Source of the DNA: an uncultured Pseudomonadota bacterium
Lineage (GTDB): Bacteria; Babelota; Babeliae; Babelales; UBA12411
Length of the DNA: 64,000 nt
Direction of reading: 5' to 3'
Assembly (NCBI GenBank): GCA_964491895.1
Contig: CAZBHK010000007.1
Coordinates: 258-64,257 of the forward strand
In this document: piece after piece, positions 1,124 through 18,600 of the stretch
How positions within the stretch are numbered: position 1 is the stretch's first letter
Layout: the number at the start of each line of letters is the position of its first letter
Position numbers and translations under genes: made by a program
The notes under the pieces: generated by a model
Told to the model about the DNA's origin: nothing
Databases searched by the model: none
What the model saw: only the letters and a program-made list of their open reading frames with translations

Positions 1124-1137
1124 GTCTAGGATATAAA

Positions 1138-2295
1138 ATGGAGAAAAAAGAAAATAAAATAATATATTTTTTAGTAATATTATTTTTGACTACAACATCT
1201 AATATTTTTTCTATTACTATTCATAATAATCAAGAGAAAAACTTCTTTCAATCAATAGATAATAGAATTTCAAAATTTTGGAATAAAAAAGTTATACCTA
1301 TAAGAATACTTGATGGATATATAACAGCACAACCGAGTTTATTTAATATTATTCAAGAAAAATTTAATAGATTGGTTTCTAATATAAATAATTTGGATAT
1401 ATCAGATGTTAATAAAGAATATTCTGCACAAGAATCAGGAGGTATATTTACTAAGCTTGGACAGAATTTAAAAATAAAGATTTTAGAAATTTGGAATTAT
1501 GAGCCACTTATTTTATTAACTGTTCTTGAGGGTCCTATAACATCAGAACCATCTATATTCGAAGGTTTTAAAATACCTAGCTTTAATGATAGTGGAAGTG
1601 TGTTGCATATTCTTCAAGGAGTAGGTAAAGAGGCACTTACGAATGAGTTGTCAGAGGAAAAGAGCTTTTTTGCTAAAGGAAAGCAGTATATTGCAGAAAT
1701 ATTAAAAAAGTTTTTATCACCTGAGCCTGATACAATAGCCTTGTATGTTACAAGAGAGAGAGAAAAATTCCAAAAAGAGATGGAAAAGTATCTTCAATAT
1801 GATGACTTAGAAAGTAAGTTAGAAACTTTTGAAAATCATCTTAAAGATTTTAATCAAAATATTGAACAGGACAAACAGGAGTTATTGGTAAGAACAAAAC
1901 ATATTAAAAAGTTAAAACATAATGATAGTTTGAAAAAAGGCTTAGCAACAAAGATTGATAAGATGGCATCAAAGATGGTTTTTGTGGATAAGGATTTACA
2001 AGATAGGTATGAAAAACTTTATTCTGAGTTTAATAATACAGTAGAGAAAAGACTTTCATCTACTCAGGACTCGATGAAAAATGAGATAGATAATAAATTT
2101 AAACAGCTAGAGAAAAAATTAACTAAGAAAGAAAATTCTGAGGATTATAATCTTAGTAGAAAGGAGATTTCTTATTTGATAAGAGAGTCTGTAAAAAGAC
2201 ATATGTACCTTTCAAAAGAAAGAGTTGGTAAGCAACGTAAGTATGATGCCAATGAAGTTGTTGAAATAATACAAAAAATGCTTTTAAATAAATAA
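1138..2295 (+). CDS. Anchored or secreted coiled-coil protein (module gene B')
   Basis: N-terminal hydrophobic segment IIYFLVILFLTTTSNIF and a K/E/Q-rich helical C-terminal half. The tail VKRHMYLSKERVGKQRKYD resembles VRRQMYVPRPAKRQYS of ORF 9898..10779. AGGA lies upstream of the ATG, 14 nt after the A' stop. Confidence 0.6.
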   Translation: MEKKENKIIYFLVILFLTTTSNIFSITIHNNQEKNFFQSIDNRISKFWNKKVIPIRILDGYITAQPSLFNIIQEKFNRLVSNINNLDISDVNKEYSAQESGGIFTKLGQNLKIKILEIWNYEPLILLTVLEGPITSEPSIFEGFKIPSFNDSGSVLHILQGVGKEALTNELSEEKSFFAKGKQYIAEILKKFLSPEPDTIALYVTREREKFQKEMEKYLQYDDLESKLETFENHLKDFNQNIEQDKQELLVRTKHIKKLKHNDSLKKGLATKIDKMASKMVFVDKDLQDRYEKLYSEFNNTVEKRLSSTQDSMKNEIDNKFKQLEKKLTKKENSEDYNLSRKEISYLIRESVKRHMYLSKERVGKQRKYDANEVVEIIQKMLLNK

Positions 2296-2296
2296 G

Positions 2297-3865
2297 ATGT
2301 TTAATAAATTAAAGTTAATTATAAGTTTTATTATTGTAAGTTCATTTTCTCCAAATGTTGCGGATCTTTTAGTTGAGCCTATAGAGGACGTGAATAAAGA
2401 TGGCAAGTTGGATATGATAGATATTATTCCTAAGCTTGCAACAAAGAGGCAGTTTAAGTTTGCTCGTGAATTAGAGAATCAGGTTAAGAAAGAAGTGGAA
2501 TGGCAAAATCGAAGAATGCATCGTGAAGCACTTCGAGATAAGGTTTATGATAGAGTTCGTCTACGTAAAGGCCGTGAAATTAATACTGATGATCTAATAT
2601 ACAAGATTCCTTCTTGGCCGTTTAGTTCTATTTACTATGCAGAAAAAGATTTATTTGAGATAAGTTTGAAGGCTAATGATTCAACAAAAGCATTTAATTC
2701 ATCAGGTGGTTCTCAAGATATATCTAAGTTAGTTTTTGGACAAAAAAGTATTAAGTTACAAGATATTTTACTTGTTTCTAAATTACTGAGGTCGGGTGTT
2801 TTACAATCTTTAACATCAAATCCTAATAATACTGGTCATTATTATTATATTTTGGCGAATCAGCCTATAGAGTTTGATGCCTCAATTAACAGCCAAAGGG
2901 CAACGGTAAGCTATGCAAGACATTTTAGGAATGGCGATATTTCATTTGGTTTAGAAGTTCCCATAGTGCGTAGAGAAAATAAACTTAAGTTAATTTCTTC
3001 AATTTCTTCTACTGATAGAAATAGTTTACAAAATAAAACACCGTATTTCTTTGCAAAATATGCAGATTTAGAAGAATTTTTTTCTGCTATTTTAGGTGCT
3101 AGTCATATATCATTTAATAAACATGATCGAGAGGTTGGCTTAGGTGATATATCTACCTTTATAAACTTTGAAATTAATTCTAAGAATTTTGAACGTTTTA
3201 TTATTGGCGCAAAATTACTTTTTCCTACAGCTAATGATAGGGAAGTGGATGTTTTATGGCATCCAGATTTGGGGAATGGAGGTTTTATAGAATGTTCAAT
3301 ATTTGCTGGTCTTTTGCTGGACTATAATAAATATTTTAATCCTTATGTCTTTGTAAATATTACAGGTGTTATTCCTGCAAAAGTCTCTCGTCGTGTTCCT
3401 ATTAAGAAGGAATATGATGGAGGAGATCCTAATTCTAACGTTGGAGATTTTTTAATACTTGGTGATACGGAAGTTCAATATAAGGCAACAACATTTTCTG
3501 AGTTTGATACATCTGTTCGTAGGTTTCCTAGTGTTGTAAAAAGTATAAAGATACATAAGGGCCCACAATTTTATTGTAAGTTGGGTAACGTCTTTGAAGA
3601 GGTATTGTTTAAGCATGGTTTTTTAGATACTTTCTATGACGTTAGATTAAAAGCTTCTGATTATGTAGGTTCTTATAAGGATAGTTCTATTAATCCTGCA
3701 GTGTTAAAGGAAAATACCTTTGAAATAGACCATCGTTTTGGTTTTAATTACGATTATCAGTTTAGTGGTAGGCAGAGGATTACAACTGGGTTTGCTATGT
3801 CTATAGCTGGTAGGAATACACCACAAACTTTTGAGGGTAATATAGCCTTTAGTACAGAGTTCTAA
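2297..3865 (+). CDS. Outer-membrane beta-barrel-like protein (module gene C')
   Basis: Signal-like N-terminus (LKLIISFIIVSSFSPNVA), a charged helical stretch, then alternating-polarity sequence ending ...EGNIAFSTEF with a terminal Phe, as in OMP C-terminal signatures. Clear paralog of ORF 10805..12400 (roughly 60% identical in the stretch I aligned by eye). Starts 1 nt after the B' stop. Confidence 0.6.
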   Translation: MFNKLKLIISFIIVSSFSPNVADLLVEPIEDVNKDGKLDMIDIIPKLATKRQFKFARELENQVKKEVEWQNRRMHREALRDKVYDRVRLRKGREINTDDLIYKIPSWPFSSIYYAEKDLFEISLKANDSTKAFNSSGGSQDISKLVFGQKSIKLQDILLVSKLLRSGVLQSLTSNPNNTGHYYYILANQPIEFDASINSQRATVSYARHFRNGDISFGLEVPIVRRENKLKLISSISSTDRNSLQNKTPYFFAKYADLEEFFSAILGASHISFNKHDREVGLGDISTFINFEINSKNFERFIIGAKLLFPTANDREVDVLWHPDLGNGGFIECSIFAGLLLDYNKYFNPYVFVNITGVIPAKVSRRVPIKKEYDGGDPNSNVGDFLILGDTEVQYKATTFSEFDTSVRRFPSVVKSIKIHKGPQFYCKLGNVFEEVLFKHGFLDTFYDVRLKASDYVGSYKDSSINPAVLKENTFEIDHRFGFNYDYQFSGRQRITTGFAMSIAGRNTPQTFEGNIAFSTEF

Positions 3866-4045: not shown

Positions 4046-7000
4046 ATGGTCGTGAATCGGTTAAATTTACGTATTTTTTTAATTATTCTTTTTTTTTCTA
4101 CTAATTTGAATCCTCTTACTGTTGGTTCAGATACAGCAGTTTCGCGTTTATATTCGACACCAGTATTTCTTTCTGGGGATACTTTAAATAATATTGTAGG
4201 ATTTACTAAGTTAGAATCAGGGTTTAGTTTAGAAACTTCGGATGTTACTTGTACATTTGATGCATTTTTCCCAGTTTCAGGTTCCATATTATTAAATAGT
4301 GGATCACTATTTTTAAAACATGATTTAGTTTTATCTAATACAAGTTCAATAGTTTCTCTTGGATCTATACTAGGAAATAATAGGTCTATACAATTTCCTT
4401 CAGCGTTTACTGGATCAGATTTTGGTTCAGGTGGTTCAATTACTGCAGGTATTGTGCAATTAGCTTCCTCTGTAGTAGATGCTACTGTAAATGTTCAGAT
4501 TATTGATTGGGATCCGACTGGGTCATATTTGGCTGTAGGTATGCCAAATTCGGCAAGTGACCAGGAACTTCGGGTTTATTATTATAATTCAATAGATAAT
4601 TCACTTACGTTAACCTTTGTATATCCTCTTGGTGCTACAACTAATATTAATGCTCTTAAATGGTATCCGAAGTATACATCCCTTACGACAACAACTTCGC
4701 CGGCATTAGCTGTAGCAAAAAATAGTACTGATACAGATACTAATGCTGTAAGTATTTTTCAAGTAAGGCAAGCACCTGGTTTTTTAGGATTGGTAAGAAC
4801 AACAGCAATCGTAGCTGGTAGCAATCAGACATCCATTACATGGTCTAATAGTGGTAATTATCTAATATATGGACAGAATAATGCTAATGAAATTCAGGCA
4901 TATTCATATGTACCATCAACTGGTGTTGCTACTGCACTTGGTGCAGCAGTTTCTCCATTCAGTGTTACAAGATTAGTGAGTAAAAGAGCTATATCATTTA
5001 GTCCTGGAGATGATTATTTTGCAGTTGCAACTAACAGTGCTCTTAGTAGCCCACATATGGATATATATGCATTTTCTGCGGCAGGTATTGGAGCGGTTAT
5101 AATTGATAATGGTACAGCGCCTCTTATTGATGCAAATGCTAATTCTATTTATTCATTGGATTGGTCACCTACTGGTAGTTATATAGCGGTAGGTTTTGGT
5201 GGTGGTGCTATTCCTCATTTAGCAATTTATAAATTTGCACCTACTCCAACATTAACTCAGGTTGCAACCAATAGTGATGCAGCTGGCACTACTGTAGAAT
5301 GTGTTAATTGGACAAGTGATGGTAATAGACTATTAACTACTAACGGTCTCAATCAAATACGTATTTTTTCTTGGGATAAAGGAGCAGAGGCTTTATCTGT
5401 TGTAAATGGTAAAAGTTTGCCGACATTAAGTACAGCATCTTGTTGGCAAAGATTTGGTCTTAATAAATTTGGAATAGCCTTGAATACACCTGGAACAGTA
5501 CGTATATATGGTTTTGATCAGCAAGCGGTATTCCAAGACGTATCTTTATTCTTTAGAAATGATATAGATTTTAATAAAAATATTGATATTTTGGGTAATG
5601 TTTATATTAATATGTTAGGTAATCAGTTTTCTATAAGTTCTGGTGGTAAGTTTACTATTTATCCTAATAGTACTCTTTATTTTGATAGTTCTGCTATTAA
5701 TTTAAATGTTCATGAGCCTTTTGTATTAATAGATAATACTTCTCAATTAGCATTACATAATGCAACTATTTTACTTGAGTCTGATATTGTTTTTAATAAT
5801 GGTGGTATAAGTATTTCCCAAGGTGATACTTATATTGAGGGAGCTCATACCTTTTCATATAACAGTGTATATAGTTCTACTATAGATAGTTTTTCATCAT
5901 TAAGTTTAGTTAACGGTGTTACTTTATGTATAGGAGATTCTGCTGATGGTTCTTTATTAAAAATAGGATCACCATTAGAGTTTGTTGATAATACTTCTGA
6001 ACTAATATTACAAGAATCAACGCTTTTTATTACAGATACTGGTTTACATCTTTTAAAAGGTAAAATGAGGATAGATCAAAATGTTGTTTTGGATATAGCG
6101 AATACACAAACAACATTTGGGTTAATTATAGGTGATGGTACTACCGCTAATGATTTTGAAATATATTTGAGTCTTGCAGCGTCTAAACTTCAGTTGGAGA
6201 ATGGTGCTCTAATATACAAAAATAACAGTAATTCTAGAGTGAGTTATCATAGTAATGGAGTGATATATTTACAGGATGGATCTTTATTATATTTAGATCG
6301 ACCATTAGAATTATTAAACGGTATATTAAGATATGATAATGTTACTTCATTAAGTGTGCCTACATTATCTAATTCATATTTCACTGTTGATAATATTATA
6401 GGTAATTATAGTGGTAATCATAAGAATATAGAATATAATTTAACTGGCACTATTAAAGATTTACAAAATTTTGTATTAGATACAAATGATATCTTTTCTA
6501 TTAATCAAGGAATCTTGACTGATGTAATTGTAACAGTCTCTAGAGGTAATAATATTTTTAATGGTTTATCCAAGTATGAAGGTTTGCTTTCTTTAGTTGA
6601 TTATAATAGTACTGTTACCTGGGTTAATTTAGTTTTATCTCATAATGATATTACCTTGAATGGTGGTAAATTAATAATTGGTTCAAATTTAATGTTTGAA
6701 GAAATGTCGTCATTGAGAACTTCGGGTACAGTAGTGATACAAGAATACATTTTATGTTTAAGTTCGATTGAACATACCGAAGATGCAAATTTATATATTG
6801 ATTCTTCTTCTGGAATTATATGTTTACAAAGTAATATTACTTTAGATAATAGTTGGACGGTTAGTGGCAATCTTCGTATTCATGGTAATGGTTATAATAT
6901 ATTGTTTGATACATCAGGAGAGTTTGTTGTTGAACGAGGATCTACTCTGGAACTTCAGGATGTACATATAGACTCACTTTTTGATAGTAAATTACGTTGT

Positions 7001-9901
7001 ATGGATAGTGCTGGTACTATTAAAATAAATAATACTATTTTAGATATTAGTGCACCATATACATTTGCTCAAGGAAAATTAGTATTTAAAGGAGATTCAT
7101 TTTTAAAAGGTAAAACAACATTTTCTTATGAGTCTAATCAATCTAGTGTTATTGAAGATGGAAATCTTACAATTGACAAAAATCTTATAGCCTCAATAGG
7201 TAGATCTGGTAATCAGACTTCTAATGAGCCGTTATTATTTACAAATAATACGTCTATATTGACTTTGGATGGTGCTACATTACAGGTTACAACTTCTGGT
7301 ATGCAATTAACTAAAGGAGAGTTGCATTTAAGGCGAAATGCTATTTTAGATATACAGTCTACTCAGACAACATTTGGATTAATTATTGGTGATGGTACTG
7401 CATCTAATGATTGTAATATTGATATTGATTTTGTGACAATAAAAAATGGAGCATTTACATATAAGAATACAGTTGATAACTATATAAATTTTGATACAAG
7501 TGTTTCTAGATTATATTTTTTAACTCCAGCTACATTTAATATAGAAAAACCTTTGCTGTTGACTGATGGCGAGTTGAAAATTTCAACATTTGATCTTATT
7601 AACGTTTATGATGCTGGAAATTTTACTGTTCAAAATTTATTACAAACTATTGAAAATAATAATATAAAAATGATTGGTTCATTTACATTAGGAGCATCAG
7701 GTTTAGATTTAAGTAGTACGGACTTCTTTAGAAATTTAGAAGGAGTCTTTAACCTTGGTCCACTAAATATTAATGAAACAGGAGCGGTCATTTCAGGTTA
7801 TGGTGGAACAATAAATTCTGATATTATTTTTTTAAATAATACTATAAGTGCAACAATAAGTACTGGGCTTTCTACTTTTTTGTTAGGTAATATTATTTTA
7901 AATGGTGGTAAGACTTTCTTATCGAACAATGTTACTTTTGGTCAAGATTTTAATTTTACAGGTTCTGGTACAATTGATTCAGCTTGTTATAAAGTTGATT
8001 TTGGTCGAACTGATTTAACATTTACAGATTCTTTAATTTGGATTAATGGTTCCTTAGATATTAATAGTAACTTAACATTAGCTACATCAATTACATTTTA
8101 TGGCACTACAAAAATCACTGGTAATGGCCATATTTTAGACTTTGCACCAGGTGGTGGTATTTATATAGCACCAGGAGGACATTTAATTTTAACAGAACTA
8201 TCTATTCATAATTTAGGAATTACTACAGATAATTTATCTATGTTAGGAGTTGATAGTCAGATACATATGTCAAATGTGTTTGTCAATCTTTCTAATAACT
8301 ATACAACTACTATAGGTGGTATCATAATAGAGGGACCAACTATTTTTGGGTTGAAAAATTATAATTGGACTTTTGATTTAAGCGCTTCTGTATCAATAAA
8401 AGGTGTTACTTTATGGATAGATTCAATTGGAGAGAGTAACCGTGGTACATTATTATTTGGATCACCATTACTAAATTATCTTACATTTATTAATAGTGGT
8501 ACATATAAAGAAGTTGCTGATGCAAGATCGTTTGATCTTTCCCTAAGTAATAGCCAGACAATTCTTACTATTACCGATAACATTAACTATAATAGTCAAG
8601 CTATTGTAACAATAGCTGGAGATATCTTAATACCTGTAGATTTATCAGATGCTTCTGGAGTAATTATTCTTGATCATGAACGGGGAGTTAATTTTAATGT
8701 GCATCCTGCATTGTCCTTACACCTTACATTATCAGATGCTTCAGAAGTTTTATCTAAGGATCTTGATACTAGTTTGAAGATTACGGACTCTATCCAAATT
8801 AAAGGAAGGGATAATGTAATAGATGTTTCTCAAACTTTTACTCTTCTTGGAAGTTTATTATTTGAGCCTAATAGCGAACTTACTTTTAGATTTAATGATA
8901 AGGGTGATCGACCTAGGGTGTATTTATCCAATAGTATTACAATTTCTGCGGATTCTCGGCTTGTGTTTAAGAATATAGGCGAGTTCTTAGTTAAGGATGG
9001 AGAATCTATATCATTTGAGGGAGGGTTAGTTAATCTGTCTGAACTTTCTGTTGAAGATAGAGCTTATTTTCATATAGAAGAAAATCTTACTGATACGGCA
9101 GTAGTGACTTTCAAGGGAACGTTACCTTCTGGTGATGGTAGAATTAGCATGCTAAATGGTGGTACTATAGAGATTGAAGATTCTCGACATCTTATTATAG
9201 GTAATGCTGTTACGGATAACTTTGATATTGTGGCGTCTGACAATGGATTACTTAAGGTAGCTGGTATGGCGGCGCGTATTTCTTTACAGTTAGCTACTAT
9301 GAGGTTGATATTTGAGTTGGGTGGTACTCTTTTAGTGCGAGATGGTGGAGTTTTTGAAGTTAACTCATTAAATGATGTTGCTGCTGCTGGTAATATTGGA
9401 ACCTGGTTATTTAATGATAATGGAGTATTAGATATAGGTGAGAATGGTATATTCTCCTTGGGTGAAAATATATCTGCTAATAGCTTTAATTTTAAGGCTA
9501 TTGGTGGGATAATAAATACGAGTCCAAGTATCTTATTGAATGGTAAAGTTGGTCTTTTATCTGAGACAGCATTTATTGGGATGATTTCTCATAGACCGTT
9601 TGAACTTACAAGTGTTTCTGCCATAGAATTAGTTTCTGGATTATTACAGAGAGCATTATTACAGGACATACAATCTACTCAGGCAAATTTGAGTGTAAGT
9701 GTCTTATTTATTGACTCTTTAGGGGTACATAAGGTAAGACTAAATAATGGTCAGATTGCTAGTTTAGACTCTGGAGATATTATTACTAGGGATGATTCTA
9801 CGACAGGTATAGTTTATGGAATAGGTGCTGGTGAATCTTCATTTGCAATACAACCAAGAAGTGATTTGACGGAGCCTATATTTTACAGGTATAGAAAATG
9901 A
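4046..9901 (+). CDS. Giant (1951 aa) secreted protein: signal peptide, WD40-like beta-propeller, repetitive beta-helix-like region, conserved C-terminal domain (module gene A)
   Basis: Uninterrupted 5.9-kb ORF with AAGGAAG before the ATG and a hydrophobic N-terminus (LRIFLIILFFSTNL). Seven WD-like blades (IDWDPTGSYLAVG, LKWYPKY, ITWSNSGNYLIYG, ISFSPGDDYFAVA, LDWSPTGSYIAVG, VNWTSDGNRLLTT, ..GTVRIYGF). Many NGG(T/K/I)-type and N/T/S-rich turns typical of passenger-like beta-helices. Confidence 0.85.
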   Translation: MVVNRLNLRIFLIILFFSTNLNPLTVGSDTAVSRLYSTPVFLSGDTLNNIVGFTKLESGFSLETSDVTCTFDAFFPVSGSILLNSGSLFLKHDLVLSNTSSIVSLGSILGNNRSIQFPSAFTGSDFGSGGSITAGIVQLASSVVDATVNVQIIDWDPTGSYLAVGMPNSASDQELRVYYYNSIDNSLTLTFVYPLGATTNINALKWYPKYTSLTTTTSPALAVAKNSTDTDTNAVSIFQVRQAPGFLGLVRTTAIVAGSNQTSITWSNSGNYLIYGQNNANEIQAYSYVPSTGVATALGAAVSPFSVTRLVSKRAISFSPGDDYFAVATNSALSSPHMDIYAFSAAGIGAVIIDNGTAPLIDANANSIYSLDWSPTGSYIAVGFGGGAIPHLAIYKFAPTPTLTQVATNSDAAGTTVECVNWTSDGNRLLTTNGLNQIRIFSWDKGAEALSVVNGKSLPTLSTASCWQRFGLNKFGIALNTPGTVRIYGFDQQAVFQDVSLFFRNDIDFNKNIDILGNVYINMLGNQFSISSGGKFTIYPNSTLYFDSSAINLNVHEPFVLIDNTSQLALHNATILLESDIVFNNGGISISQGDTYIEGAHTFSYNSVYSSTIDSFSSLSLVNGVTLCIGDSADGSLLKIGSPLEFVDNTSELILQESTLFITDTGLHLLKGKMRIDQNVVLDIANTQTTFGLIIGDGTTANDFEIYLSLAASKLQLENGALIYKNNSNSRVSYHSNGVIYLQDGSLLYLDRPLELLNGILRYDNVTSLSVPTLSNSYFTVDNIIGNYSGNHKNIEYNLTGTIKDLQNFVLDTNDIFSINQGILTDVIVTVSRGNNIFNGLSKYEGLLSLVDYNSTVTWVNLVLSHNDITLNGGKLIIGSNLMFEEMSSLRTSGTVVIQEYILCLSSIEHTEDANLYIDSSSGIICLQSNITLDNSWTVSGNLRIHGNGYNILFDTSGEFVVERGSTLELQDVHIDSLFDSKLRCMDSAGTIKINNTILDISAPYTFAQGKLVFKGDSFLKGKTTFSYESNQSSVIEDGNLTIDKNLIASIGRSGNQTSNEPLLFTNNTSILTLDGATLQVTTSGMQLTKGELHLRRNAILDIQSTQTTFGLIIGDGTASNDCNIDIDFVTIKNGAFTYKNTVDNYINFDTSVSRLYFLTPATFNIEKPLLLTDGELKISTFDLINVYDAGNFTVQNLLQTIENNNIKMIGSFTLGASGLDLSSTDFFRNLEGVFNLGPLNINETGAVISGYGGTINSDIIFLNNTISATISTGLSTFLLGNIILNGGKTFLSNNVTFGQDFNFTGSGTIDSACYKVDFGRTDLTFTDSLIWINGSLDINSNLTLATSITFYGTTKITGNGHILDFAPGGGIYIAPGGHLILTELSIHNLGITTDNLSMLGVDSQIHMSNVFVNLSNNYTTTIGGIIIEGPTIFGLKNYNWTFDLSASVSIKGVTLWIDSIGESNRGTLLFGSPLLNYLTFINSGTYKEVADARSFDLSLSNSQTILTITDNINYNSQAIVTIAGDILIPVDLSDASGVIILDHERGVNFNVHPALSLHLTLSDASEVLSKDLDTSLKITDSIQIKGRDNVIDVSQTFTLLGSLLFEPNSELTFRFNDKGDRPRVYLSNSITISADSRLVFKNIGEFLVKDGESISFEGGLVNLSELSVEDRAYFHIEENLTDTAVVTFKGTLPSGDGRISMLNGGTIEIEDSRHLIIGNAVTDNFDIVASDNGLLKVAGMAARISLQLATMRLIFELGGTLLVRDGGVFEVNSLNDVAAAGNIGTWLFNDNGVLDIGENGIFSLGENISANSFNFKAIGGIINTSPSILLNGKVGLLSETAFIGMISHRPFELTSVSAIELVSGLLQRALLQDIQSTQANLSVSVLFIDSLGVHKVRLNNGQIASLDSGDIITRDDSTTGIVYGIGAGESSFAIQPRSDLTEPIFYRYRK
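5582..6871 (+). repeat. Internal long repeat unit 1 (~425 aa) within the giant ORF
   Basis: IDILGNVYINMLGNQFSISSGG.., GDTYIEGAHTFSYNS.., VTLCIGDSADGSLLKIGSPLEFVDNTSELILQESTLFITDTGLHLLKGKMRIDQNVVLDIANTQTTFGLIIGDGTTANDF align with unit 2. Boundaries are approximate. Confidence 0.6.
6872..8110 (+). repeat. Internal long repeat unit 2 within the giant ORF
   Basis: LRIHGNGYNILFDTSGEF.., GDSFLKGKTTFSYES.., PLLFTNNTSILTLDGATLQVTTSGMQLTKGELHLRRNAILDIQSTQTTFGLIIGDGTASNDC parallel unit 1. Boundaries are approximate. Confidence 0.6.
8111..8510 (+). repeat. Partial third repeat unit within the giant ORF
   Basis: KITGNGHILDFAPGGGIYIAPGGHLIL.., GPTIFGLKNYNWTFD.., VTLWIDSIGESNRGTLLFGSPLLNYLTFINSGT match the first third of units 1 and 2. 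Confidence 0.5.
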
Positions 9902-10779
9902 GGGCTGAAATGAAGGGTTTAATATTTGCTATTTTGTTACCTATGTATGTTTGTGCAGATACAAATTTAATTTCTAAAAAGAATTTTAATGAAGAGTCTT
10001 TTGACGAAGATGATTTACAACAAAAAATTCAATCAAGACTTAAAGACGTTCAATATATGAAATCTGAGCTTCAGCTAAAAAAAACAGCAACTGACACTGA
10101 TCCTGGTGTAATGTTTAAAGTTGGAAGATTGTTTATTAGCATTAAATCACAGTTATATAAAATGTATGTAAAATTTCAAACTGCTGTAGAGAACAGGCTT
10201 AGTGTTCAAGAAGAACTTTCTAAACTTCAACAAGACAAGTTACTGAGAGTAGAAAAGACGTTAGAAAGCTTAAATCAAAATCTTCACGATACTGAAGAAC
10301 GTGTTCTTTCTAAGGTTGCTAATGCTACACAAATAGGTTCTATTCAGGATGAGCTTTCTGAAAAAGTGAAAAACGAAATCGTACAGTTAAAAAAAGACGT
10401 AGAGAAAGAAAAAGAAGAATTAGTTTCAAAAGTTGTTGGACATTCTTCATCATCTGTTAAGTTACTTGAAGATCAAATTTCTAAAGTTAAAGAAGAAGTT
10501 AGTAAGGAAAATTTGGATAAGAGATTTGAGGCTATGCTTTCTAATGTGATTTCTGCAACACAAGAAATGGTAAAGAAAGAAGTGGCAAGAAGTTTGGCTG
10601 GTGTATTGAATAAAAAATCATTACCAGAAGTGAGTCCTTCTGTTAAGGCAGATAATGGAAAGGGCGGCATATCAGAACTTATACAAAAGGAAGTAAGACG
10701 ACAAATGTATGTGCCTAGACCCGCTAAGCGACAGTACTCAGTTAGAAGAGATTACGTTGACGAAGAAGATTTAGATTAA
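9898..10779 (+). CDS. Anchored or secreted coiled-coil protein (module gene B)
   Basis: The ATG overlaps the stop of the giant ORF (ATGA). Hydrophobic N-terminus MKGLIFAILLPMYVCA, E/K/L-rich heptad-like sequence, and a C-terminal tail related to ORF 1138..2295. Confidence 0.65.
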   Translation: MRAEMKGLIFAILLPMYVCADTNLISKKNFNEESFDEDDLQQKIQSRLKDVQYMKSELQLKKTATDTDPGVMFKVGRLFISIKSQLYKMYVKFQTAVENRLSVQEELSKLQQDKLLRVEKTLESLNQNLHDTEERVLSKVANATQIGSIQDELSEKVKNEIVQLKKDVEKEKEELVSKVVGHSSSSVKLLEDQISKVKEEVSKENLDKRFEAMLSNVISATQEMVKKEVARSLAGVLNKKSLPEVSPSVKADNGKGGISELIQKEVRRQMYVPRPAKRQYSVRRDYVDEEDLD

Positions 10780-10804
10780 CGCCACATGGTTAAAATTTGA
10801 GTGG

Positions 10805-12400
10805 TTGAATGTGTATAAAATATTCCTTGTTTTCCTATTATTAACAAGCTTCTTTGTACAGGCAAATGCTGAAGTTACTCCAGAGCTTCAACGTAAAATT
10901 AGAAAAGAGATAGAAGCTCAACAGCGCTTGCAGTACAAGGAGAAGGTAAAACAAAAAAATCTAGCTGAAAAAATCAAATCTAAAGTCAAACAAGAGATCA
11001 AATGGCAAAATTATAAGATCCAGCGTCAAGCTAAAAAAGATCAGCTTGCTGGTAGGGTCCGTATGCATAGCCCTTCACGATTTGATCATGAAGATTTTAT
11101 CTATAAAATTCCAACATGGCCATTTAATTCAGTTTTCTATGCTGAGAATGACCTGTGTGAGTTGAATCTTAAGGTTAATGGTGCTTCAAGAGCGTTTGAC
11201 TCTTCAGGATCATCAAGAGATATTTCTAGATTAGTTTTTGGAGAAAAGGATTTAGTGCTTCAAGATATCTTATTAGCTTCCAAATTGCTTAAGGCTGGTA
11301 AAATACAAGCTAATTCTGCCAAGTTAGTGGGACCACCACCTGTTACCGCTTCTCGTTATCATTATTATTATATTTTGGCTGACCAACCAATAGTTTTTGA
11401 TGCATCTACCAGTAGTCAGAGATTAGACTTAAATTATGCCAGACATTTTAGAGATGGTGATATTTCTTTTGGGCTAGTAATCCCTGTTATACGTAAAGAG
11501 AATAATATTAGACTGGAATCTGGTATTTCTTCGGTTATACGTAGTCAGTTAGAAGCTGTAAGTCCTAGATTTGCTGATAGGTTTGGTACACTGCAAGATT
11601 TATTACAGGAAATTTTAGGTGCAAGTGGTATTTCATTTAATAAAAAGGATAGAGAAGTAGGGATAGGCGATGTCCAGGTCTTTGCTAACTTGGAAATTCC
11701 TAGCGAATATTTTGAACGGTTTGTTACAGGATTCAAGGTTTCTATTCCAACAGCCAATGGCAGGAAGACTGATAAACTTTGGGATCCTGAGCTAGGCAAT
11801 GGTGGGTTTTTAGAGATGTCCTTGTTTATGGGTTTACTTAAGAGCTTTAATAAGTATTTTAATCCTCATATGTATTTAGAGCTTACTGGCGCTATTCCAG
11901 CAACTGTTAATAGACGTGTACCTATTAAGAAGGAGTATGATGGAGTTTTACCTGCTAGTGGTGTTCCTATAGGAGATTTTTTGCTTTTAGGTCAGGCTGA
12001 GATTCAGTATCTAGGCGGTACTACTTTTAGTGAGTTTGATACTCAGGTAAGGAATTTTCCTATTACTGTTAAGGGTGTAAAAATACGTAGGGGGCCTCAA
12101 ATTAATCTTAGAATAGGTAACATTATAGAAGAGGTCTATTCACGTAAGGGATTCTTAGAGCTTTTTTATGACCTTAGGTTAAAGGGTGCAGATTATCTGA
12201 GCTTGGGTAGAAGCTGGGATGGTTACGATCCTTCTATATTAACTGACAATACTTTTGAATCTGAGCATCGCTTGGGATTTAGCTATGATTATCAATTTTC
12301 AGGAAGACAAAGGGTCAATATTGGTTTTCTCGCAGGTATTACCGGTAGAAATACTCCTCAGGTTTTAGAGGGTAATATAGCATATAGCTTAGAGTTTTAG
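10805..12400 (+). CDS. Outer-membrane beta-barrel-like protein (module gene C)
   Basis: Signal peptide (KIFLVFLLLTSFFVQANA/EV) and a charged helix (KQEIKWQNYKIQRQAKKDQ). Paralogous to ORF 2297..3865 along its whole length and ends EGNIAYSLEF. The start may be TTG 10805 or GTG 10811. Confidence 0.65.
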   Translation: MNVYKIFLVFLLLTSFFVQANAEVTPELQRKIRKEIEAQQRLQYKEKVKQKNLAEKIKSKVKQEIKWQNYKIQRQAKKDQLAGRVRMHSPSRFDHEDFIYKIPTWPFNSVFYAENDLCELNLKVNGASRAFDSSGSSRDISRLVFGEKDLVLQDILLASKLLKAGKIQANSAKLVGPPPVTASRYHYYYILADQPIVFDASTSSQRLDLNYARHFRDGDISFGLVIPVIRKENNIRLESGISSVIRSQLEAVSPRFADRFGTLQDLLQEILGASGISFNKKDREVGIGDVQVFANLEIPSEYFERFVTGFKVSIPTANGRKTDKLWDPELGNGGFLEMSLFMGLLKSFNKYFNPHMYLELTGAIPATVNRRVPIKKEYDGVLPASGVPIGDFLLLGQAEIQYLGGTTFSEFDTQVRNFPITVKGVKIRRGPQINLRIGNIIEEVYSRKGFLELFYDLRLKGADYLSLGRSWDGYDPSILTDNTFESEHRLGFSYDYQFSGRQRVNIGFLAGITGRNTPQVLEGNIAYSLEF

Positions 12401-12494
12401 CTGGTTTTAGATGTCTTGAGTGGTTGCAATGTTTTCTTGCATTGTTATACTCCAATTATTTACTAAATGTCTAAAATTAGCTTTGCAGGTTGTT

Positions 12495-13916
12495 ATGTAT
12501 TTATCTAAATTTTCAAGAATATTTCTTTTAATCTTTTTTGTGTCAGTTGATGTTGTATTTGGTGAAATTGATGAAACGCAGGCAGCTGATGTTGTGGACT
12601 TTTTAAATAGGTCGACAAGAACACGTAGAGGTACAAAATTTCAGCGTTTTATTGATAAGGCTAATTTATCTGAAACACTTTCTAGTCTCAGGAATAAAAC
12701 ACAGAAGTTTTATGAAGAGAATGAATTAGCTGATATTGAAGCAGGTATATTAAAGGCTGAAAATCCTATAGATAAAGAAAAATTAGAAAAAAATCATAAT
12801 TGGGTTTATTACAAACAAAGAAGAGAACTTGAAAACGCTTTGGATACTGCTTTATTGTCAGGATCAGCGAATCCATGGACAGATGCTTTTGTAGTGGGAA
12901 TGATAGCTTCTCAACCTAAAATTTATGAAGCGCTTCAGGACGAGGGTGTTTTTGATGCACTAAAGAATGAAAATGATGGAGCTGTTGCTGAAGCTGCCAA
13001 AAAGGTAGGGATAGGTTTGCTAGCAGTTTCTGCTGAATCTGTAGGCAAGACAGTTAATAATATAGTCTCACAGAACTTTGGTAGTCCGTTGGAAAGAATA
13101 GCAAGGGTTATATTTGGTAGTATTGGTAATTTTTCTAGAAAGATTTGGACCAAGTCGGTCAAGATCTATTATGGTGTTCAAGGCGAGCCGTTTGCCCATC
13201 AAGAGGTTAAAGATTTTGGCATAATTGTTGATACTATGCTTGAGGATTATAAAGAAACCTGTAATAAGGCTGTTAATAATATGAGTAATCGAGAACGTAT
13301 TAATAGGAAGAAGAATCTTGATGACGCAGAAGAAGTTCTAGAAAAAATAGATGAAATAGTCTTCGAAATAACTAAGTCTCATGTTAAAAAATCAATGGAT
13401 ATTTCTATATTAGGAGATTCTAAGACTACTATATTAGAGAAAATATTTGAGGCTTATGATAAGGATTTTATCCCTAAAGAATTAGAGGGTGTTAAGACCT
13501 TTGCTGAGTTGATTAATGTAATACAGATGGACTCTGACTGGAAGGATGAGCGTGAGCATTCCTTAAATAGTATAGTTGGTCTAGTTGACTACTTTAATAT
13601 TAGAATGGCTTACTATTCTAAGGATAAAAGTTCTATGGAGTTTCGTTATGCATCTATGATCAGAGAGCGTTTATTAGAGTTTGCATCTATGATATCTCTT
13701 GCTACTTCTGATAAATATTTTGGTAGTGAGCAAGCTCAAAGACGTCTTAGACGAATAAGAAGTGGTTTGGCTAAAAATTTTGAGAATCTATTAAAGTATA
13801 TTCCTAATCTTGAGTTCGCTGGTGAAGAGAAGAAGGTAGAAGCTAAGAAAAAACGTACACGACCATCTTTTGGTGAATATGAAGAAGAAGATTATGGATT
13901 TAATAGGTTGATGTAA
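12495..13916 (+). CDS. Secreted, largely helical protein of unknown function (cluster gene D)
   Basis: The ATG at 12495 gives MYLSKFSRIFLLIFFVSVDVVFG/E, a signal-peptide-like N-terminus. The track's upstream GTG extension (12420) lacks one. Acidic/basic tail KKRTRPSFGEYEEEDYGF. No motif I recognise. Confidence 0.6.
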   Translation: MYLSKFSRIFLLIFFVSVDVVFGEIDETQAADVVDFLNRSTRTRRGTKFQRFIDKANLSETLSSLRNKTQKFYEENELADIEAGILKAENPIDKEKLEKNHNWVYYKQRRELENALDTALLSGSANPWTDAFVVGMIASQPKIYEALQDEGVFDALKNENDGAVAEAAKKVGIGLLAVSAESVGKTVNNIVSQNFGSPLERIARVIFGSIGNFSRKIWTKSVKIYYGVQGEPFAHQEVKDFGIIVDTMLEDYKETCNKAVNNMSNRERINRKKNLDDAEEVLEKIDEIVFEITKSHVKKSMDISILGDSKTTILEKIFEAYDKDFIPKELEGVKTFAELINVIQMDSDWKDEREHSLNSIVGLVDYFNIRMAYYSKDKSSMEFRYASMIRERLLEFASMISLATSDKYFGSEQAQRRLRRIRSGLAKNFENLLKYIPNLEFAGEEKKVEAKKKRTRPSFGEYEEEDYGFNRLM

Positions 13917-14740
13917 TGTATCATAAACTTGTATTGATTTTATTATTATCGTCTAGTTTTTTAAGTGCTAATCTTAATGAGATTAATGTTGAACATGTGC
14001 AGAAACACAAAGAGTATTATCTAAAGCAAGCTCGTAATCTAAAATATTTCAAGGTAACTGCTTGCGTATCTGCTACTGCAATAATATCTGCTATTATAAT
14101 AAAAATGTTATATAGCACTAAGCAGCCGATTGTTAAGTCTATTATAGATCCAAAGTTAAAAGAAACTTTATTTGCTGAGTTGGTACAAAAAGAACTTGAG
14201 AAAAAGAATAGAACATCAATAGAGGCATTTACTGCTTTTTTTAAACGCAATATTATATCGGGCTTGAGTTTGACTGCAACAAGTCTTGTTTTGGGTTTTG
14301 GAGATGAAGTTAAGGGCTCTTTATTTATTAGAATTAAGCAATTTTTAAAATATAAAATTGACCCAGTAATATTTAATGAAGCTCAAGTTTTTGATAACAC
14401 ATATAGTTTACATTTATACTTAACTGATTTTGTAGAACAGGCAAATACTGAGATAGATAAAGCTCATCATAGGGAACAGATAGTGTTAGGCTATGGCTTG
14501 CTTTTAGAAACAGTTGAACGATTCATGGCTGCTTTGTGTCTACAGGCACAAGCTTCTCAGGAGAAATGGCTTCTTAATTCGGAAAATAAGCTTTTTAAGG
14601 CTATGAGCTCATTAAAATTTAAAGTTGAACAAATACTTGATAATGAAAATCCTAATATTAAAGAGGTAGAGGTTGCTTTAAATCATTTAGTACATTGTCT
14701 TGGTATGGTTGCTAAAAATTGTGAGGCTCAAATTGTATGA
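13916..14740 (+). CDS. Membrane protein of unknown function (cluster gene E)
   Basis: The start overlaps the gene D stop by 1 nt (TAATG). Signal-like N-terminus LVLILLLSSSFLSA plus hydrophobic segments VTACVSATAIISAIIIKMLY and IISGLSLTATSLVLGF. Confidence 0.6.
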   Translation: MYHKLVLILLLSSSFLSANLNEINVEHVQKHKEYYLKQARNLKYFKVTACVSATAIISAIIIKMLYSTKQPIVKSIIDPKLKETLFAELVQKELEKKNRTSIEAFTAFFKRNIISGLSLTATSLVLGFGDEVKGSLFIRIKQFLKYKIDPVIFNEAQVFDNTYSLHLYLTDFVEQANTEIDKAHHREQIVLGYGLLLETVERFMAALCLQAQASQEKWLLNSENKLFKAMSSLKFKVEQILDNENPNIKEVEVALNHLVHCLGMVAKNCEAQIV

Positions 14741-15602
14741 ATTTTTTTTAATAGTTGCCTTTTCTATAGTAAGTAGTATTTATGCTTGTTCATGGTGTAA
14801 AGATGTTGGTTTAGATTCTTTATCAATCAAGCTTGATGGAATAGTAGAAAAACCAGTAGGTTCATTTAAAGATTTACTTGAACAGTTAGGTAATTATGAT
14901 TCTGGGACTTTTAAGGCATTCATGGATAATAACTGTGAGGATTCGGCTTTATCTATTACTCAAGAGCAAATCAAAACACATCCTGAGTTAGGTGAAGTTT
15001 TTTATAAGCTTTATCTAGCAAAATATTTTCCGAGAGCTCTTGTTATTACAGACCATTTTACTGAGATGTGTCCTATAGCAATAGAGGCAGCGCTTAATGA
15101 GATTATAATCATTATTACAAATGAGCCGTGGTTTTATTTCAAAAATAAACCAGACAAGTTCTTTCTGGATGAATACTGGGAAATTATTCTTGAACAATAT
15201 AAAACAATAAGTTGTTTTTTAGAAAGAGCATTGATTGACCCAATAACTAATAAAGTTTTCTTAAAAGATTCTGGTGGACTTATATTTATTGGAGAGGATC
15301 AACTAAGTAATTTTGAGTTTACTTCTAATAATAATGGTATTCCATTAACGCGATATTGGGCTCAAAATGGTATAGATAGTTTTTTTAAATTTCATGCTCA
15401 GCATTGTGATTTTATAATAAAAATATTTAATGAAGCTATTCAAAATCAAGATTATAAAAAAGCATTTTCATATTATTTAAAGCTTAGAGATGCTGTCCCA
15501 AAGTTACAAAATTCGCAATACGAAATTTTGTATCAAGAAAAACTTGAAGATGATAAGTGGTTACTAGAAGAGCTTCGTAAGCAACAAGGTTATAATGTTT
15601 AA
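14733..15602 (+). CDS. Possible lipoprotein or secreted helical protein (cluster gene F); start uncertain
   Basis: ORF open from 14700. TTG 14733 gives MYEFFLIVAFSIVSSIYAC.., a signal with Cys, and overlaps the gene E stop (14738-14740). No recognisable catalytic motif. Confidence 0.5.
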   Translation: MYEFFLIVAFSIVSSIYACSWCKDVGLDSLSIKLDGIVEKPVGSFKDLLEQLGNYDSGTFKAFMDNNCEDSALSITQEQIKTHPELGEVFYKLYLAKYFPRALVITDHFTEMCPIAIEAALNEIIIIITNEPWFYFKNKPDKFFLDEYWEIILEQYKTISCFLERALIDPITNKVFLKDSGGLIFIGEDQLSNFEFTSNNNGIPLTRYWAQNGIDSFFKFHAQHCDFIIKIFNEAIQNQDYKKAFSYYLKLRDAVPKLQNSQYEILYQEKLEDDKWLLEELRKQQGYNV

Positions 15603-18600
15603 AAAAGTTTTTTTATTATTTACTGTTGCTTCTTGTCTTGCTTCAGAGTTTAAAGATCTAAATAGCTTTATAAAAAGTAGTATAGATCATTATGACTTTA
15701 AGGTAGAGGGTAGATATACACATGAATATCATCCATTTATTCTAGATAAGACTATCAATAGTTTATATCAGCTTAAGGATAGGCTTACAGTAGAAGGATT
15801 AGATCTTCAAGGACATTTAGTTGTAACTGGTTATGAAGGAGAGGCTATCCCTTCATATTATACCGATTATAACAAGGCAAAGATTAATGATGAGATGAGC
15901 TCAAAAAGTAAGGCTGGTATCTCTATTAGACCACATAATTATTTTGGGTTAATGACAGGATTTTTATTCAGAGACCTTAATTTACTTTCTACTAAATGGC
16001 TCAAGAATACGTCTGTGGTGTTTGAACATGTATGTCCAGAAAATGTTGAAATTTTAAATCTGAATGAAATTTTTCAAAGACATGCCTTTCGAGATTCTTT
16101 AGATTTTATGAATGATTATCAGGTATCGATAGAGAAGAAATTAAAAAAAGAAGATTGGAAGGGCATTTATTCAGAATTAATTAACTATTGGGATGCCTTG
16201 TATAAAAGTGAGATTACTATTATGGGTGATCAGGTCGCAGCTACACAGGATATTTTATTTTCAATAGATTACGGTAAATATCTTCTCAAATCTAATTTGC
16301 CTATGATTAAGTTTTATTGTGGTGCGGATATAACATATCCAATTGAAGAATCTATGAAGCAGGGTAAAGCGGCTACTATTAATGCACAGACCTTTGTTAA
16401 AAAGTTGGCACTAACTTTAAAACCAATAGATAGTAAAAAAACAGTTTATGTTTTTAATAGTTTTGTTGATGGTGTAGGCAAGAGTACAATGCTTGGCAAT
16501 ATTAAGAACTGGATGCAGTATGGATCTAAAATAGAAGATTATAAGCGTGTTGATAATTCTTCTTCTCAATGGGCAGAAGTCTTTCAGTTTAGTGATAGTG
16601 TATATATAGCTGATCTTCCAGCTCAAATGAGTCATTTTACATATAAGCCTGATGGACTTGTTTATGTAGAGTTTTCTTCAGAAAAAAATAAGGGCGATAC
16701 CGAGGATATTAAGAAACTTAAAACTTTTATTCTTAATAATAAAGAACAGATTTATAACAAATTTAATAAACTTTTTGATGAAATTTTAAAGATTTATAAG
16801 GAGAATGGACCTTTTGAAAAATCTTTAAATAATCAGAATATGCCAGATAGAGCATTTATTAAAAACTTGATCCTGTTAAATAAAATAGATTCTCCATGGG
16901 TTGCTTTTGAGTATGAAGGTGAAAAATATTTATTTAATTATGACATTCCTTCAGAAATTCGTATTCTGCGTACAATAGCTGGAGCATCTTCTTATGGATT
17001 GAAAAATATAGAATCAGAACAAATGTTGTTTTTTGAGGGAATACGATTTCCAGTAGCCTATCAAAGTTTTTTAGATGACCTTGTAGCTAAATTAAAAAAA
17101 GAAAATATTGAAAAAGTAGTGTTTGTAGATTTCTTAAGTATGTATCCACGTTCATCTAGGGAAAATATTCGTATAAATTACTTAGTACAGCAGATGGCTC
17201 TTCTTGATAGTAAGTTTGAAACTAAGAAATCCCTTTATAAGAACTTTATAAGTCCTGCAGAGCTTTATAGTGATATCTTGAATAAGAAGATGCGCACTAC
17301 TATGTTAAATGGTTTTGAACTTGAAATTATTACTAGATACCTATTATATAAATTTTTGGAAAAACGACCAAGTAATAATTTAGAAGGGTTAAGTATTTTT
17401 GATTTAACCATTTTACTTGATAAAGGGTTAAAGAATTTTAAAAAGAATAAGAAATTTTATAATTTTTTACATGATTTATCAAATGAAAAGTTTATGTTTG
17501 AAGAGGAAACTTTGAAAAAAGTTTTTGGGTTAAAAAAAGAGTTTGTTAATATTCAGCAATTTTCTTTTGATCTAGCAAAAACTTTTTCAGATATAATGCA
17601 GTTATACTTTACTGAGTATTTTAAGAATGATCGTCTTAATAAGCTTTGGGATGGATTAGAGGAAGAGGTTTCTGCTGTGCAGTTTCCACAGTATTCACTT
17701 GGATTTGTTAAGGAAGAAAGAAATATTTTATCCCTTAATAGTGGTACTAATCTTTGGGTACATTTTGATTTTCCAATTGATTATCATCAAAGTAATTTTT
17801 TAGCACCATTTTTTCAAACATTGCGTGCTAACTGGTATGCTTCTTTAGCTAATTTGCTTTTTTTACATGAAAAATATTCCGTGCCTCCAATGGTTTTAAA
17901 ATATGGAAAACTTTATTCAAATAGTTTGGAGTTTGATAGGATTTATTTAGGCCAAAAAGTACTTCCTGAGTGGATCGGTAACAGACAGAAAAAAATAACA
18001 ATGTTTAACTTGAGCACTTTTAGTAACCAACAGTGGGGAGAGTTTAACTCAAAACCATATCTTTTAGATTGGGATAATGGATATCCTACTAATTATGGAA
18101 TGTTTGCCTTTGGTCTTCCAAAAATTAAGCAAAAATCAACAATGGAATTTTTTGTAAAATTTTCTCCGATTGCTAGCATTATTACTGAGTATCAGAAAAA
18201 GAATGGTCTTCAATCTGTATTGCCTACATCACAATTGTATTTAGAGCTTAAAAAAAATTCTAATTGGTATGATGAATATAAGCGATTGTATCAACAAGCA
18301 AGACAGAATGGTTATTATGATCCTTCAAAAACCTTTAATACTGTAAGGCATACTGGAGAAGTTAAAAATATTTATCTTGGTACACAGAAAATGAAAACAG
18401 GTGCGGCATTATTTGTAAGAATGATTGCAACCTTGGAAATGATAGTTAAGGATGCAGATTCAGATATTGTTGTACGTAAAGGAAATAAGCAAGACTTTGT
18501 GGCAGCATTACATCTTATAGAAAAAATTACTTTACCTAGATACTTCGGAATAATATTTGAAGAACCACTATTTGATGATTATACTAAAGTGGAACCAGTT

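Follow-up and report, generated by a model that had tools for sequence, protein, structure and literature searches.

The window analyzed here is a stretch of 64,000 nucleotides from the 864-kb genome (97.6% complete) of a member of the Babeliales/Dependentiae. Two consecutive modules near its start each encode a large beta-helical protein (A), an exported coiled-coil protein (B), and an outer-membrane barrel (C). The features of this region are as follows.

2..1123, + strand: A', a paralog of A carrying a second copy of the C-terminal domain (41% identity to A, E 7e-73)
1138..2295, + strand: B1, exported coiled-coil protein of 385 aa in the first module, assigned from sequence
2297..3865, + strand: C1, barrel protein of 522 aa, paralog of C2 (51% identity over the full length)
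4046..9901, + strand: A, 1951 aa, with a signal peptide, a WD40 propeller (residues ~150-460), two and one-third beta-helix units of ~425 aa, and the C-terminal domain
8702..9898, + strand: C-terminal domain of A, residues ~1553-1951, placed by the AF2 model, the paralog alignment, and family profile matches; it consists of a beta-helix (8702-9616), a short conserved helix with a low-confidence loop (9617-9700), and a ~65-aa beta cap (9701-9889)
9899-9901, + strand: stop codon of A
9898..10779, + strand: B2, exported coiled-coil protein of 293 aa, assigned from sequence
10805..12400, + strand: C2, 531 aa, with a signal peptide, a helix (residues 26-81), a conserved WPF motif, and an outer-membrane beta-barrel ending in Phe
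12420..18639, + strand: D-G, four genes without a recognizable family (no Pfam or NCBIfam match)

The stop codon of A overlaps the start codon of B2 in the sequence ATGA. Among the 10 genes of the cluster, the only Pfam or NCBIfam matches are of the WD40 type and lie in the N-terminal part of A; B2 matches no family in either collection. Rfam returned nothing for positions 1-20000 of the window, and scans for promoters and terminators gave chance-level results only. Genes D-G recur beside A-B-C modules in other Babeliales (loci L028, L031/32, L036, L037, L039, L040, and L041), lying in some cases downstream on the same strand and in others upstream in divergent orientation. They may or may not belong to the A-B-C system.

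The original prediction, that the C-terminal end of A aligns with the partial paralog at the start of the window, was confirmed by BLASTP. Residues 2-362 of the frame at 2..1123 align with residues 1558-1937 of A (60% positives), and the alignment contains all six of the quoted blocks (LKITDSI, GR.NVIDV, SELTF.FNDK, DSRLVF, G.FEVN.LN.VA, and RL.NGQI..L..GDI.T). HMM envelopes place the start of the domain at residue ~1542-1553 (nucleotide ~8670-8702), about 25-35 residues upstream of the position first proposed. The N-terminal 402 residues of A' were found at the end of contig C1, where they are 37% identical to residues 13-370 of a canonical A protein, and the end of contig C1 overlaps the start of contig C7 inside a 42-nt tandem repeat. 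A' is thus partial because of a break in the assembly and not for a biological reason. A third copy of the domain is found on contig C1 of the same genome (G000:C1:159770-160945). The further claim that B is much more diverged than C between the two modules also holds, since B1 and B2 are barely alignable (best E 0.002) and C1 and C2 align over their full length.

The AlphaFold2 model of the domain (mcf2d2a286bce; pLDDT 91.2, pTM 0.89) is a beta-helix of ~10 rungs followed by a short helix and the beta cap. Residues 1-305 are all-beta, with ~30 short strands, and, as judged from strand content and fold matches, have the form of a beta-helical passenger. The best PDB matches found with Foldseek are the autotransporter passengers TibA (E 8e-5) and Ag43. 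These matches are weak, and the TM-scores of 0.18-0.23 indicate a generic beta-helix. The domain has no Pfam or NCBIfam match, including any known adhesin family; for the copy in the window no family was found at E ≤ 0.01, and a single match to DUF2807 (E 0.0088) was obtained for one of 17 family members. No meaningful match came from searching PDB sequences with profiles of the domain and C. Scanning the domain with Pfam and NCBIfam did not bring up the models for the C-terminal sorting domain of T9SS (TIGR04183 and PF18962, beta-sandwiches of ~80-100 aa). Foldseek against viral structures gave no match at E ≤ 0.001, so nothing points to descent from a phage tailspike. The domain was also considered as a further copy of the internal ~425-aa unit of A. 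The internal units are 27% identical to one another (E 5e-32), whereas their similarity to the domain is marginal in BLASTP (24% over 298 aa, E 0.07). The family profile nevertheless gives weak matches to upstream regions (iE down to 2e-6), and the domain may be a distant, specialized version of the internal unit, though distinct from it at the sequence level.

A profile of the domain identified 219 proteins (clusters) among 1.84 billion representatives and, as judged from these matches, the family is restricted to the phylum Dependentiae. Word-indexed searches with the domain recovered only itself or one relative. Pattern-based scans located four genome loci and one metagenome locus that duplicates L025. 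The domain reaches the C-terminus of the protein in 122 of the 150 best representatives of the 219 matches; a median of one residue follows the domain envelope. The consensus of the tail is [DN]-G-x-R-x-COOH, and about half of the copies carry such an ending. One diverged A protein that was missed by the HMM still has the domain (hhalign, 99.8%).

It had been proposed that giant proteins of otherwise variable makeup share the domain as a conserved cassette, and this was not borne out. For canonical A proteins of ~1240 aa the mean pairwise identity is 0.408 for the N-terminal 850 residues vs 0.405 for the domain, and family-wide, 96% of pairs have homologous N-terminal regions. The domain is the retained part of a remodeled protein. 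Minimal proteins of 455-572 aa, which are mostly signal peptide and domain, are still paired with C. Most of the invariant positions of the domain are Gly, Asn, or residues of the hydrophobic core, and among the 17 that are invariant or nearly so, 10 are Gly or Asn residues located at turns of the beta-helix. This pattern is that expected for maintenance of the fold, and no conserved recognition patch is evident.

The profile was used, as the original prediction had suggested, to count how often the domain is followed by a B-C pair. The outcome was positive. C follows each of the three copies present in this genome; a separate B intervenes in two cases, and in the third the B-like coiled coil is fused to C. 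A separate B occurs only where C is short. In 50 related genomes, a homolog of C lies 150-3500 nt downstream on the same strand for 62 of 78 copies, and C is present in 49 of the 50 genomes. Of the other 16 copies, one pair is cut by a contig end, ~7 could not be judged, and ~7 are true orphans with no C within 5-6 kb. Four of seven orphans lack the terminal cap. There is no clean correlation between cap loss and orphan status, because many paired copies also match the profile only partially. The distance matrices of the A domain and C are correlated (r 0.90). When partners were swapped within genomes the mean r fell to 0.49, and the observed value was reached in only 23 of 4996 swaps; linkage alone would also be expected to make neighboring genes diverge together. 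The domain is nearly always found just upstream of a FapF-like barrel, and so it is probably the element that links each A protein to a dedicated channel for export or anchoring.

The identification of C as FapF-like is structural only, since C has no Pfam match. The AF2 model of C2 (pLDDT 90.4) contains the long N-terminal helix, a linker, and a barrel, which is the combination of coiled coil and barrel seen in FapF. Foldseek aligned C2 with FapF (5o65, 5o67, and 5o68) at E 2.5e-12, with TM-scores of 0.70-0.77 normalized to FapF, and nearly as well with COG4313 (4rl8, E 2.6e-11) and FadL/TodX (E ~1e-7). Autotransporter beta-domains resemble C2 more weakly than FapF does, and BamA falls far below FapF and COG4313. 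We know of no long N-terminal coiled coil in either FadL or COG4313. FapF itself exports polypeptides through a gated channel and carries a coiled coil on its periplasmic side (PMC5557850). BamA is encoded in this genome. The autotransporter barrel PF03797 was not found in it, and the same search detected this family in control genomes.

We consider it an even chance that the A proteins are Sec-exported beta-solenoid surface proteins specific to the Dependentiae, each with its own FapF-like barrel, and that the domain is their C-terminal module next to the membrane. On this reading it would serve for targeting, and as a folding nucleus or docking site, in a system resembling a split autotransporter. 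In such a system, A, B, and C would each cross the inner membrane by Sec, and C would be placed in the outer membrane by BamA. Unfolded A would be captured by the coiled-coil platform of B/C in the periplasm, supplied either by a separate B or by the fused segment of C. The domain would then be recognized by C as its translocator, and once outside it would fold first into the capped ~10-rung beta-helix. This fold would nucleate folding of the remaining fiber in the C-to-N direction, keep the fiber docked on the barrel, or both. The domain would do the work that falls to the autochaperone or stable core in type Va passengers, here with passenger and barrel encoded by separate genes. Autochaperone and stable-core domains at the C-terminus of passengers are known to nucleate vectorial folding (PMC8151025). 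More tentatively, A-(B)-C might constitute an undescribed outer-membrane export pathway of the Dependentiae, in which a FapF-type barrel equipped with a coiled coil exports large beta-helical adhesins made as separate polypeptides. The capped domain and its [DN]GxRx tail would act as a signal in cis, directing A to the matching barrel and starting its folding once outside the cell.

As in the type Va proteins pertactin, Ag43, TibA, and Hbp, the domain is the C-terminal beta-helical segment of a long beta-solenoid, associated with a barrel of the ~12-stranded autotransporter/FapF kind, and like the autochaperone or stable core it is retained where other parts of the passenger vary. However, passenger and barrel are separate genes in A-C, and A ends 0-16 residues past the domain, without a linker helix into the pore or a C-terminal 12-stranded PF03797 beta-domain. 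The domain matches no autotransporter, pertactin, or passenger model in Pfam, and it closes with the ~65-aa beta cap and the [DN]GxRx tail. The Fap system of Pseudomonas (FapF, PDB 5O65; PMC5557850) shares with C the linker and long coiled coil before the barrel, and its substrate is likewise Sec-exported, beta-solenoid-forming, and encoded in the same operon. In contrast, the A cargo is a globular beta-helix of 450-2900 aa with a conserved C-terminal domain, whereas Fap subunits are small amyloid repeat proteins; FapB/FapC repeats and equivalents of FapA, FapD, and FapE are not recognizable among the 10 cluster genes with Pfam or NCBIfam, and the barrel region of C, without a Pfam match, is ~415 aa vs ~320 in FapF. 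Two-partner secretion (type Vb, TpsA/TpsB) likewise has the gene for a large beta-helical exoprotein next to that of a dedicated outer-membrane transporter, and a conserved beta-helix domain of ~300 aa marks the cargo. That domain is N-terminal, whereas the domain of A is C-terminal, and Pfam on A gives WD40 only and no TPS domain. C is not a 16-stranded Omp85/POTRA transporter (no Pfam match; best folds FapF and COG4313). The chlamydial Pmps (PMC10715098) are multicopy beta-helical surface proteins of an obligate intracellular bacterium; their "middle" beta-helix near the barrel is conserved and their distal parts are variable. Each Pmp, however, is a type Va autotransporter made as a single chain and containing GGA(I,L,V)/FxxN repeats. 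No Pmp model of Pfam matches the domain, and PF03797 was not found in the genome.

A surface receptor may dock on an uptake channel, as TbpB does on TbpA and SusD on SusC. By analogy, C could import host lipids or hydrophobic nutrients captured by A, and the domain would be only a docking foot and not a secretion signal. The near-equal matches of C to COG4313 and FadL/TodX and the tight one-to-one pairing of the A and C genes are compatible with this role, as is the extreme auxotrophy of the Dependentiae, which import nutrients from the host (PMC6561590). We regard it as unlikely, because A would need another route across the outer membrane in a genome where no classical type V barrel was found, and because the coiled coil, at the N-terminus of C or as a separate B, is a hallmark of FapF (PMC5557850). 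The several modules per genome, with very different tips on their A proteins, also look more like a family of adhesins.

If the domain were instead a conserved stalk, structural or adhesive, kept for its own role outside the cell, such as host binding or the self-association known from Ag43 and TibA, the linkage with C would reflect only operon inheritance. Self-associating passengers are indeed its best structural matches, the positions conserved in it are mostly those that maintain the fold, it is no more conserved than the N-terminal region, and some copies are orphans. This proposal leaves unexplained the extreme C-terminal position and conserved terminal motif, the private barrel kept by minimal domain-only proteins, and the loss or replacement of N-terminal parts but never of the domain, and we find it improbable. 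We think it very unlikely that A stays in the periplasm as an envelope-spanning scaffold, with the domain attached to the inner face of the barrel together with the coiled coils of B and C. In favor of a scaffold, all three proteins have Sec signals, the long helices predicted for B and the N-terminus of C would be periplasmic, and passage of A across the outer membrane is our inference. Against this, surface proteins typically show what is seen in A: a beta-solenoid of 800-2900 aa, a tip of the WD40 type, and diversified paralogs, and the FapF-type and autotransporter-type barrels matched by C are polypeptide exporters (PMC5557850).

Members of the Dependentiae are widespread and live as obligate parasites of protists; signal peptides are present on about half of their proteins (PMC6561590). 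In the literature found, there is no description of the pairing of this domain with a barrel, nor of an outer-membrane secretion route for large surface proteins in this phylum. If the domain is the coupling element, it would define the set of cargos of a new export or anchoring pathway, with a sequence rule for finding them: the domain lies strictly at the C-terminus, and its last residues are often [DN]GxRx. A3-C3 (517 + 689 aa) would then be a minimal two-gene module, and the FapF/autotransporter barrel architecture would be used for more than amyloid export. Should the reading as a split autotransporter prove true, it would establish a new type V/FapF-like subclass and provide a first handle on how these parasites of protists display host-interaction proteins.

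The tail of A, a large exported beta-helix protein, was found to align with the reading frame at 2..1123 as originally noted; the alignment covers A residues 1558-1937 (41% identity, E = 7e-73) and includes every sequence block quoted for it. Using profile envelopes, the start of this C-terminal domain was placed at residues ~1542-1553, slightly upstream of the first estimate. The first 12.4 kb of the window hold two modules on the same strand, in which an A-type gene is followed by genes for an exported coiled-coil protein (B) and a FapF-like outer-membrane barrel (C). The greater divergence of B than of C between the modules was also borne out, with barrels C1 and C2 being 51% identical and B1 and B2 hardly alignable.

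Features of the two modules (same strand) and the genes that follow
2..1123, A′, module 1
1138..2295, B1, module 1
2297..3865, barrel C1, module 1
4046..9901, A (1951 aa), module 2
9898..10779, B2, module 2
10805..12400, barrel C2, module 2
12420..18639, D-G, four genes after module 2
19142-21718, mutS, 3′ of D-G

The TGA stop codon of A (9899-9901) overlaps the first ATG of B2 (9898-9900) as ATGA, an arrangement consistent with translational coupling; a second ATG occurs at 9910. No ORF of at least 100 residues was found on the strand opposite the domain region of A, and Rfam gave no match in window positions 1-20000. The products of D-G (~370-500, ~270-320, ~260-310, and ~1000-1040 aa) gave no family match, and G carries an export signal and the Walker-A motif DGVGKST. 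These four genes adjoin A-(B)-C modules in at least eight other Babeliales contigs, in some cases downstream on the same strand and in others upstream in divergent orientation, and may be part of the same envelope system. An intact IS605-family TnpB (OrfB_IS605, Cas12f-like TNB domain, HTH domain) is encoded at 22558-23769 with no TnpA nearby.

The genome (G000; 864 kb, ~31% GC, 97.6% complete, 9 contigs) contains a third copy of the domain at 159770-160945 of contig C1. It lies in A3, a 517-residue protein in which a signal peptide and NIxYNSQ repeats precede the domain; 9 nt further on comes C3, a barrel protein of 689 residues with a long coiled coil at its N-terminus. The end of contig C1 encodes the first 402 residues of an A-type protein and overlaps the start of contig C7, of which the window covers positions 258-64257, within a 42-nt (14-aa) tandem repeat. 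The partial state of A′ is thus an assembly artifact: the repeat caused the assembly break, contigs C1 and C7 are therefore adjacent, and the genome has three tandem modules in which each of the three domain copies is followed by a C gene. The repeat occupies positions 1-152 of contig C7 (L002), just upstream of the window, where 3.6 copies are present, and the end of contig C1 (~164,920-164,976). It encodes NIxYNSQxILTNxD, which is found in the variable hinge of A′ directly before the domain and also in A3.

Small signal-peptide ORFs of 231 and 228 aa are located just upstream of A3 and A′ (contig C1:158634-159386 and 163006-163689, respectively). Both match the internal beta-helix unit of A, and the former also aligns with canonical A residues ~420-530; they are either pieces of A genes that have been split or small secreted beta-helix proteins in their own right. 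Just past the 3′ end of the window, on the minus strand, contig C7:64877-67996 encodes a large protein, cut by the contig end, with many WD40-like blades flanking one A-type beta-helix unit. No C-terminal domain was detected in it at E ≤ 0.01, and a genome-wide search for C found no further homolog elsewhere on contig C7.

The domain had been described as a conserved cassette on otherwise variable proteins. This description did not hold, since the N-terminal regions are also homologous and are equally conserved in canonical members. Pairwise comparison of 74 full-length representatives showed homology between the N-terminal regions in 96% of pairs, at 0.20 bits per residue, the value for the domain being 0.22. 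Eight canonical members of ~1150-1380 aa share a mean pairwise identity of 0.408 over residues 30-850 and 0.405 over the domain; conservation is poor only at ~750-850, directly before the domain. The three paralogs in G000 are remodeled versions of the canonical protein: A′ retains canonical residues 13-370 and the domain, A3 retains the domain alone, and A carries an added WD40 propeller and additional units. Only the C-terminal domain is retained in every case. Gly or Asn occupies 10 of the 17 positions in it that are invariant or nearly so, and core hydrophobics occupy 4. Its conservation therefore looks structural, and no obvious recognition patch was apparent in the 17-sequence alignment.

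In a search of 1.84 billion cluster representatives with a three-sequence profile, 219 proteins passed E ≤ 1e-3, and 64 of these also passed E ≤ 1e-30. Among the best 150 matches the host proteins range from 99-aa fragments to 2942 aa; 122 of them match through to the profile end, with a median of 1 residue (maximum 16) left before the protein terminates. The terminal motif is [DN]-G-x-R-x in ~55%. Homologs of the window proteins bear the names Candidatus Babeliales, Dependentiae, or TM6, and all 200 phylum relatives sampled belong to the same order as G000. The domain is also present on GenBank records CAZFDQ010000055 (L024) and CAZBMD010000009 (L026), titled "uncultured Pseudomonadota bacterium"; the latter contig (G076:C9) shares its GTDB order with G000, and the public label of these MAG records is probably wrong.

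After fragments were merged, 78 copies of the domain were found in 50 of the 201 phylum genomes sampled. The C profile matched in 67 of the 201, including 49 of the 50 that carry the domain. A C homolog lies 150-3500 nt downstream on the same strand for 62 of the 78 copies. One further copy is paired with a C gene cut by the contig start, and one is a duplicate within a 4841-aa ORF, the final copy in that ORF being paired; about seven lie at contig ends, where pairing cannot be judged, and about seven have no C within 5-6 kb. The pairing count is an underestimate, because the HMM missed the domain in a 1428-aa A protein directly upstream of a 634-aa C (L036); profile comparison recovered this copy (99.8%, E = 1.7e-30), which ends in ...PNGTRS. 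On independent contigs from NCBI, ENA, JGI, and Logan the genes run A-B-C, or A-C where no intervening B gene was called, and even proteins of 455-572 aa with little beyond a signal peptide and the domain retain a C partner. What the data establish is confined to the anatomy of the modules and the linkage of their genes.

The distance matrices for the domain and C are correlated with r = 0.90 (20 modules, 12 genomes). When C partners were swapped within genomes only, the mean r was 0.49, and the observed value was reached in 23 of 4996 swaps. Each pair has thus been passed on, and has diverged, as a unit from a time before these genera split. This co-divergence is compatible with cognate specificity, but plain linkage would give the same result. 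In four orphans with no C gene within reach (L026; L046, G149:C4; L052, G044:C11; L050, G071:C1), the profile match ends at ~300-320 of 384, before the terminal cap. Partial matches also occur in many paired copies, and no clean rule relates cap loss to orphan status.

The AlphaFold2 model of the domain, built on the 17-sequence alignment (pLDDT 91.2, pTM 0.89), contains a beta-helix of ~30 short strands (residues 1-305), a conserved short helix (307-314), a low-confidence loop (~315-333), and a small seven-stranded beta domain (334-396) that we interpret as a C-terminal cap. A Foldseek search of the PDB returned generic beta-helices only, the best being the autotransporter passengers TibA (E = 8e-5) and Ag43 (E = 1.7e-3) with low TM-scores, and the viral library gave nothing at E ≤ 0.001. 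Neither the window copy nor any of the 17 members gave a match in Pfam, NCBIfam, or PDB sequence searches, apart from one DUF2807 hit (E = 0.0088) in a single member. The domain is an undescribed family with a common fold.

The model of C2, built with 52 sequences (pLDDT 90.4), shows a signal peptide, a helix (26-81), a poorly ordered linker, a conserved Y-K-x-P-x-W-P-F motif, and a barrel with a terminal Phe. Its best PDB matches are FapF chains (E = 2.5e-12, TM 0.70-0.77 normalized to FapF), followed by the COG4313 channel 4rl8 (E = 2.6e-11), FadL/TodX (E ~ 1e-7), and, at E ~ 3e-6 or weaker, autotransporter beta-domains. FapF, a trimeric and plug-gated exporter of polypeptides with 12 strands, needs its periplasmic coiled coil for secretion, and its likeness to type Va barrels was stressed by its authors (PMC5557850). 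B genes occur solely in modules with a short C (525-579 aa). A and C are separated by 555-1369 nt where C has 525-552 aa, and module G016_a (C of 579 aa) has a 2552-nt gap with an 855-aa ORF in it; all nine modules in which C measures 585-726 aa lack a B gene, A and C there being at most 30 nt apart or overlapping. The very divergent B proteins share a C-terminal motif, I-x3-I-[KR]-x-E-V-[KR]-[KR]-Q-[LMI] (window B genes 9898-10779 and 1138-2295), and a similar motif is present in the N-terminal helix of short C proteins (10805-11100 and 2297-2600). The confinement of B to modules with short C therefore suggests that B is a split-off coiled-coil extension of C.

In function the A-(B)-C system would come closest to a mixture of type Va, type Vb, and Fap secretion, and it belongs to none of them. 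The fused PF03797 barrel of type Va is absent. Type Vb cargo has an N-terminal TPS domain and an Omp85 transporter, whereas the conserved cargo domain here is C-terminal and C is not an Omp85 protein. Neither the amyloid subunits nor the accessory genes of Fap are present, the domain lacks a T9SS-type CTD, and no Pmp model matched. One BamA and no recognizable autotransporter barrel were found in G000, and our literature search found no publication describing such a system.

We give about an even chance to a split cargo/barrel system in which the domain engages C, folds first, and nucleates C-to-N folding and/or docks the fiber. Sec would carry A, B, and C over the inner membrane, BamA would insert C, and unfolded A would be held by the B/C coiled-coil platform. 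The domain would then engage the barrel, emerge, and fold first into a capped beta-helix, from which it could nucleate C-to-N folding of the fiber and/or keep it docked. Autochaperone or stable-core segments of type Va passengers have been assigned that nucleating role (PMC8151025), although cargo and barrel are separate polypeptides here. Export by way of C is our inference, as are docking and the direction of folding. The resemblance of C to COG4313 and FadL would also suit a receptor paired with an uptake channel, which we regard as unlikely. That the domain is a stalk kept because it has a separate extracellular function seems slightly less likely still, and a periplasmic scaffold is improbable. 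For the split cargo/barrel system, recognition or anchoring is a candidate role of the domain; the domain and its coupling to C are themselves real and previously undescribed.
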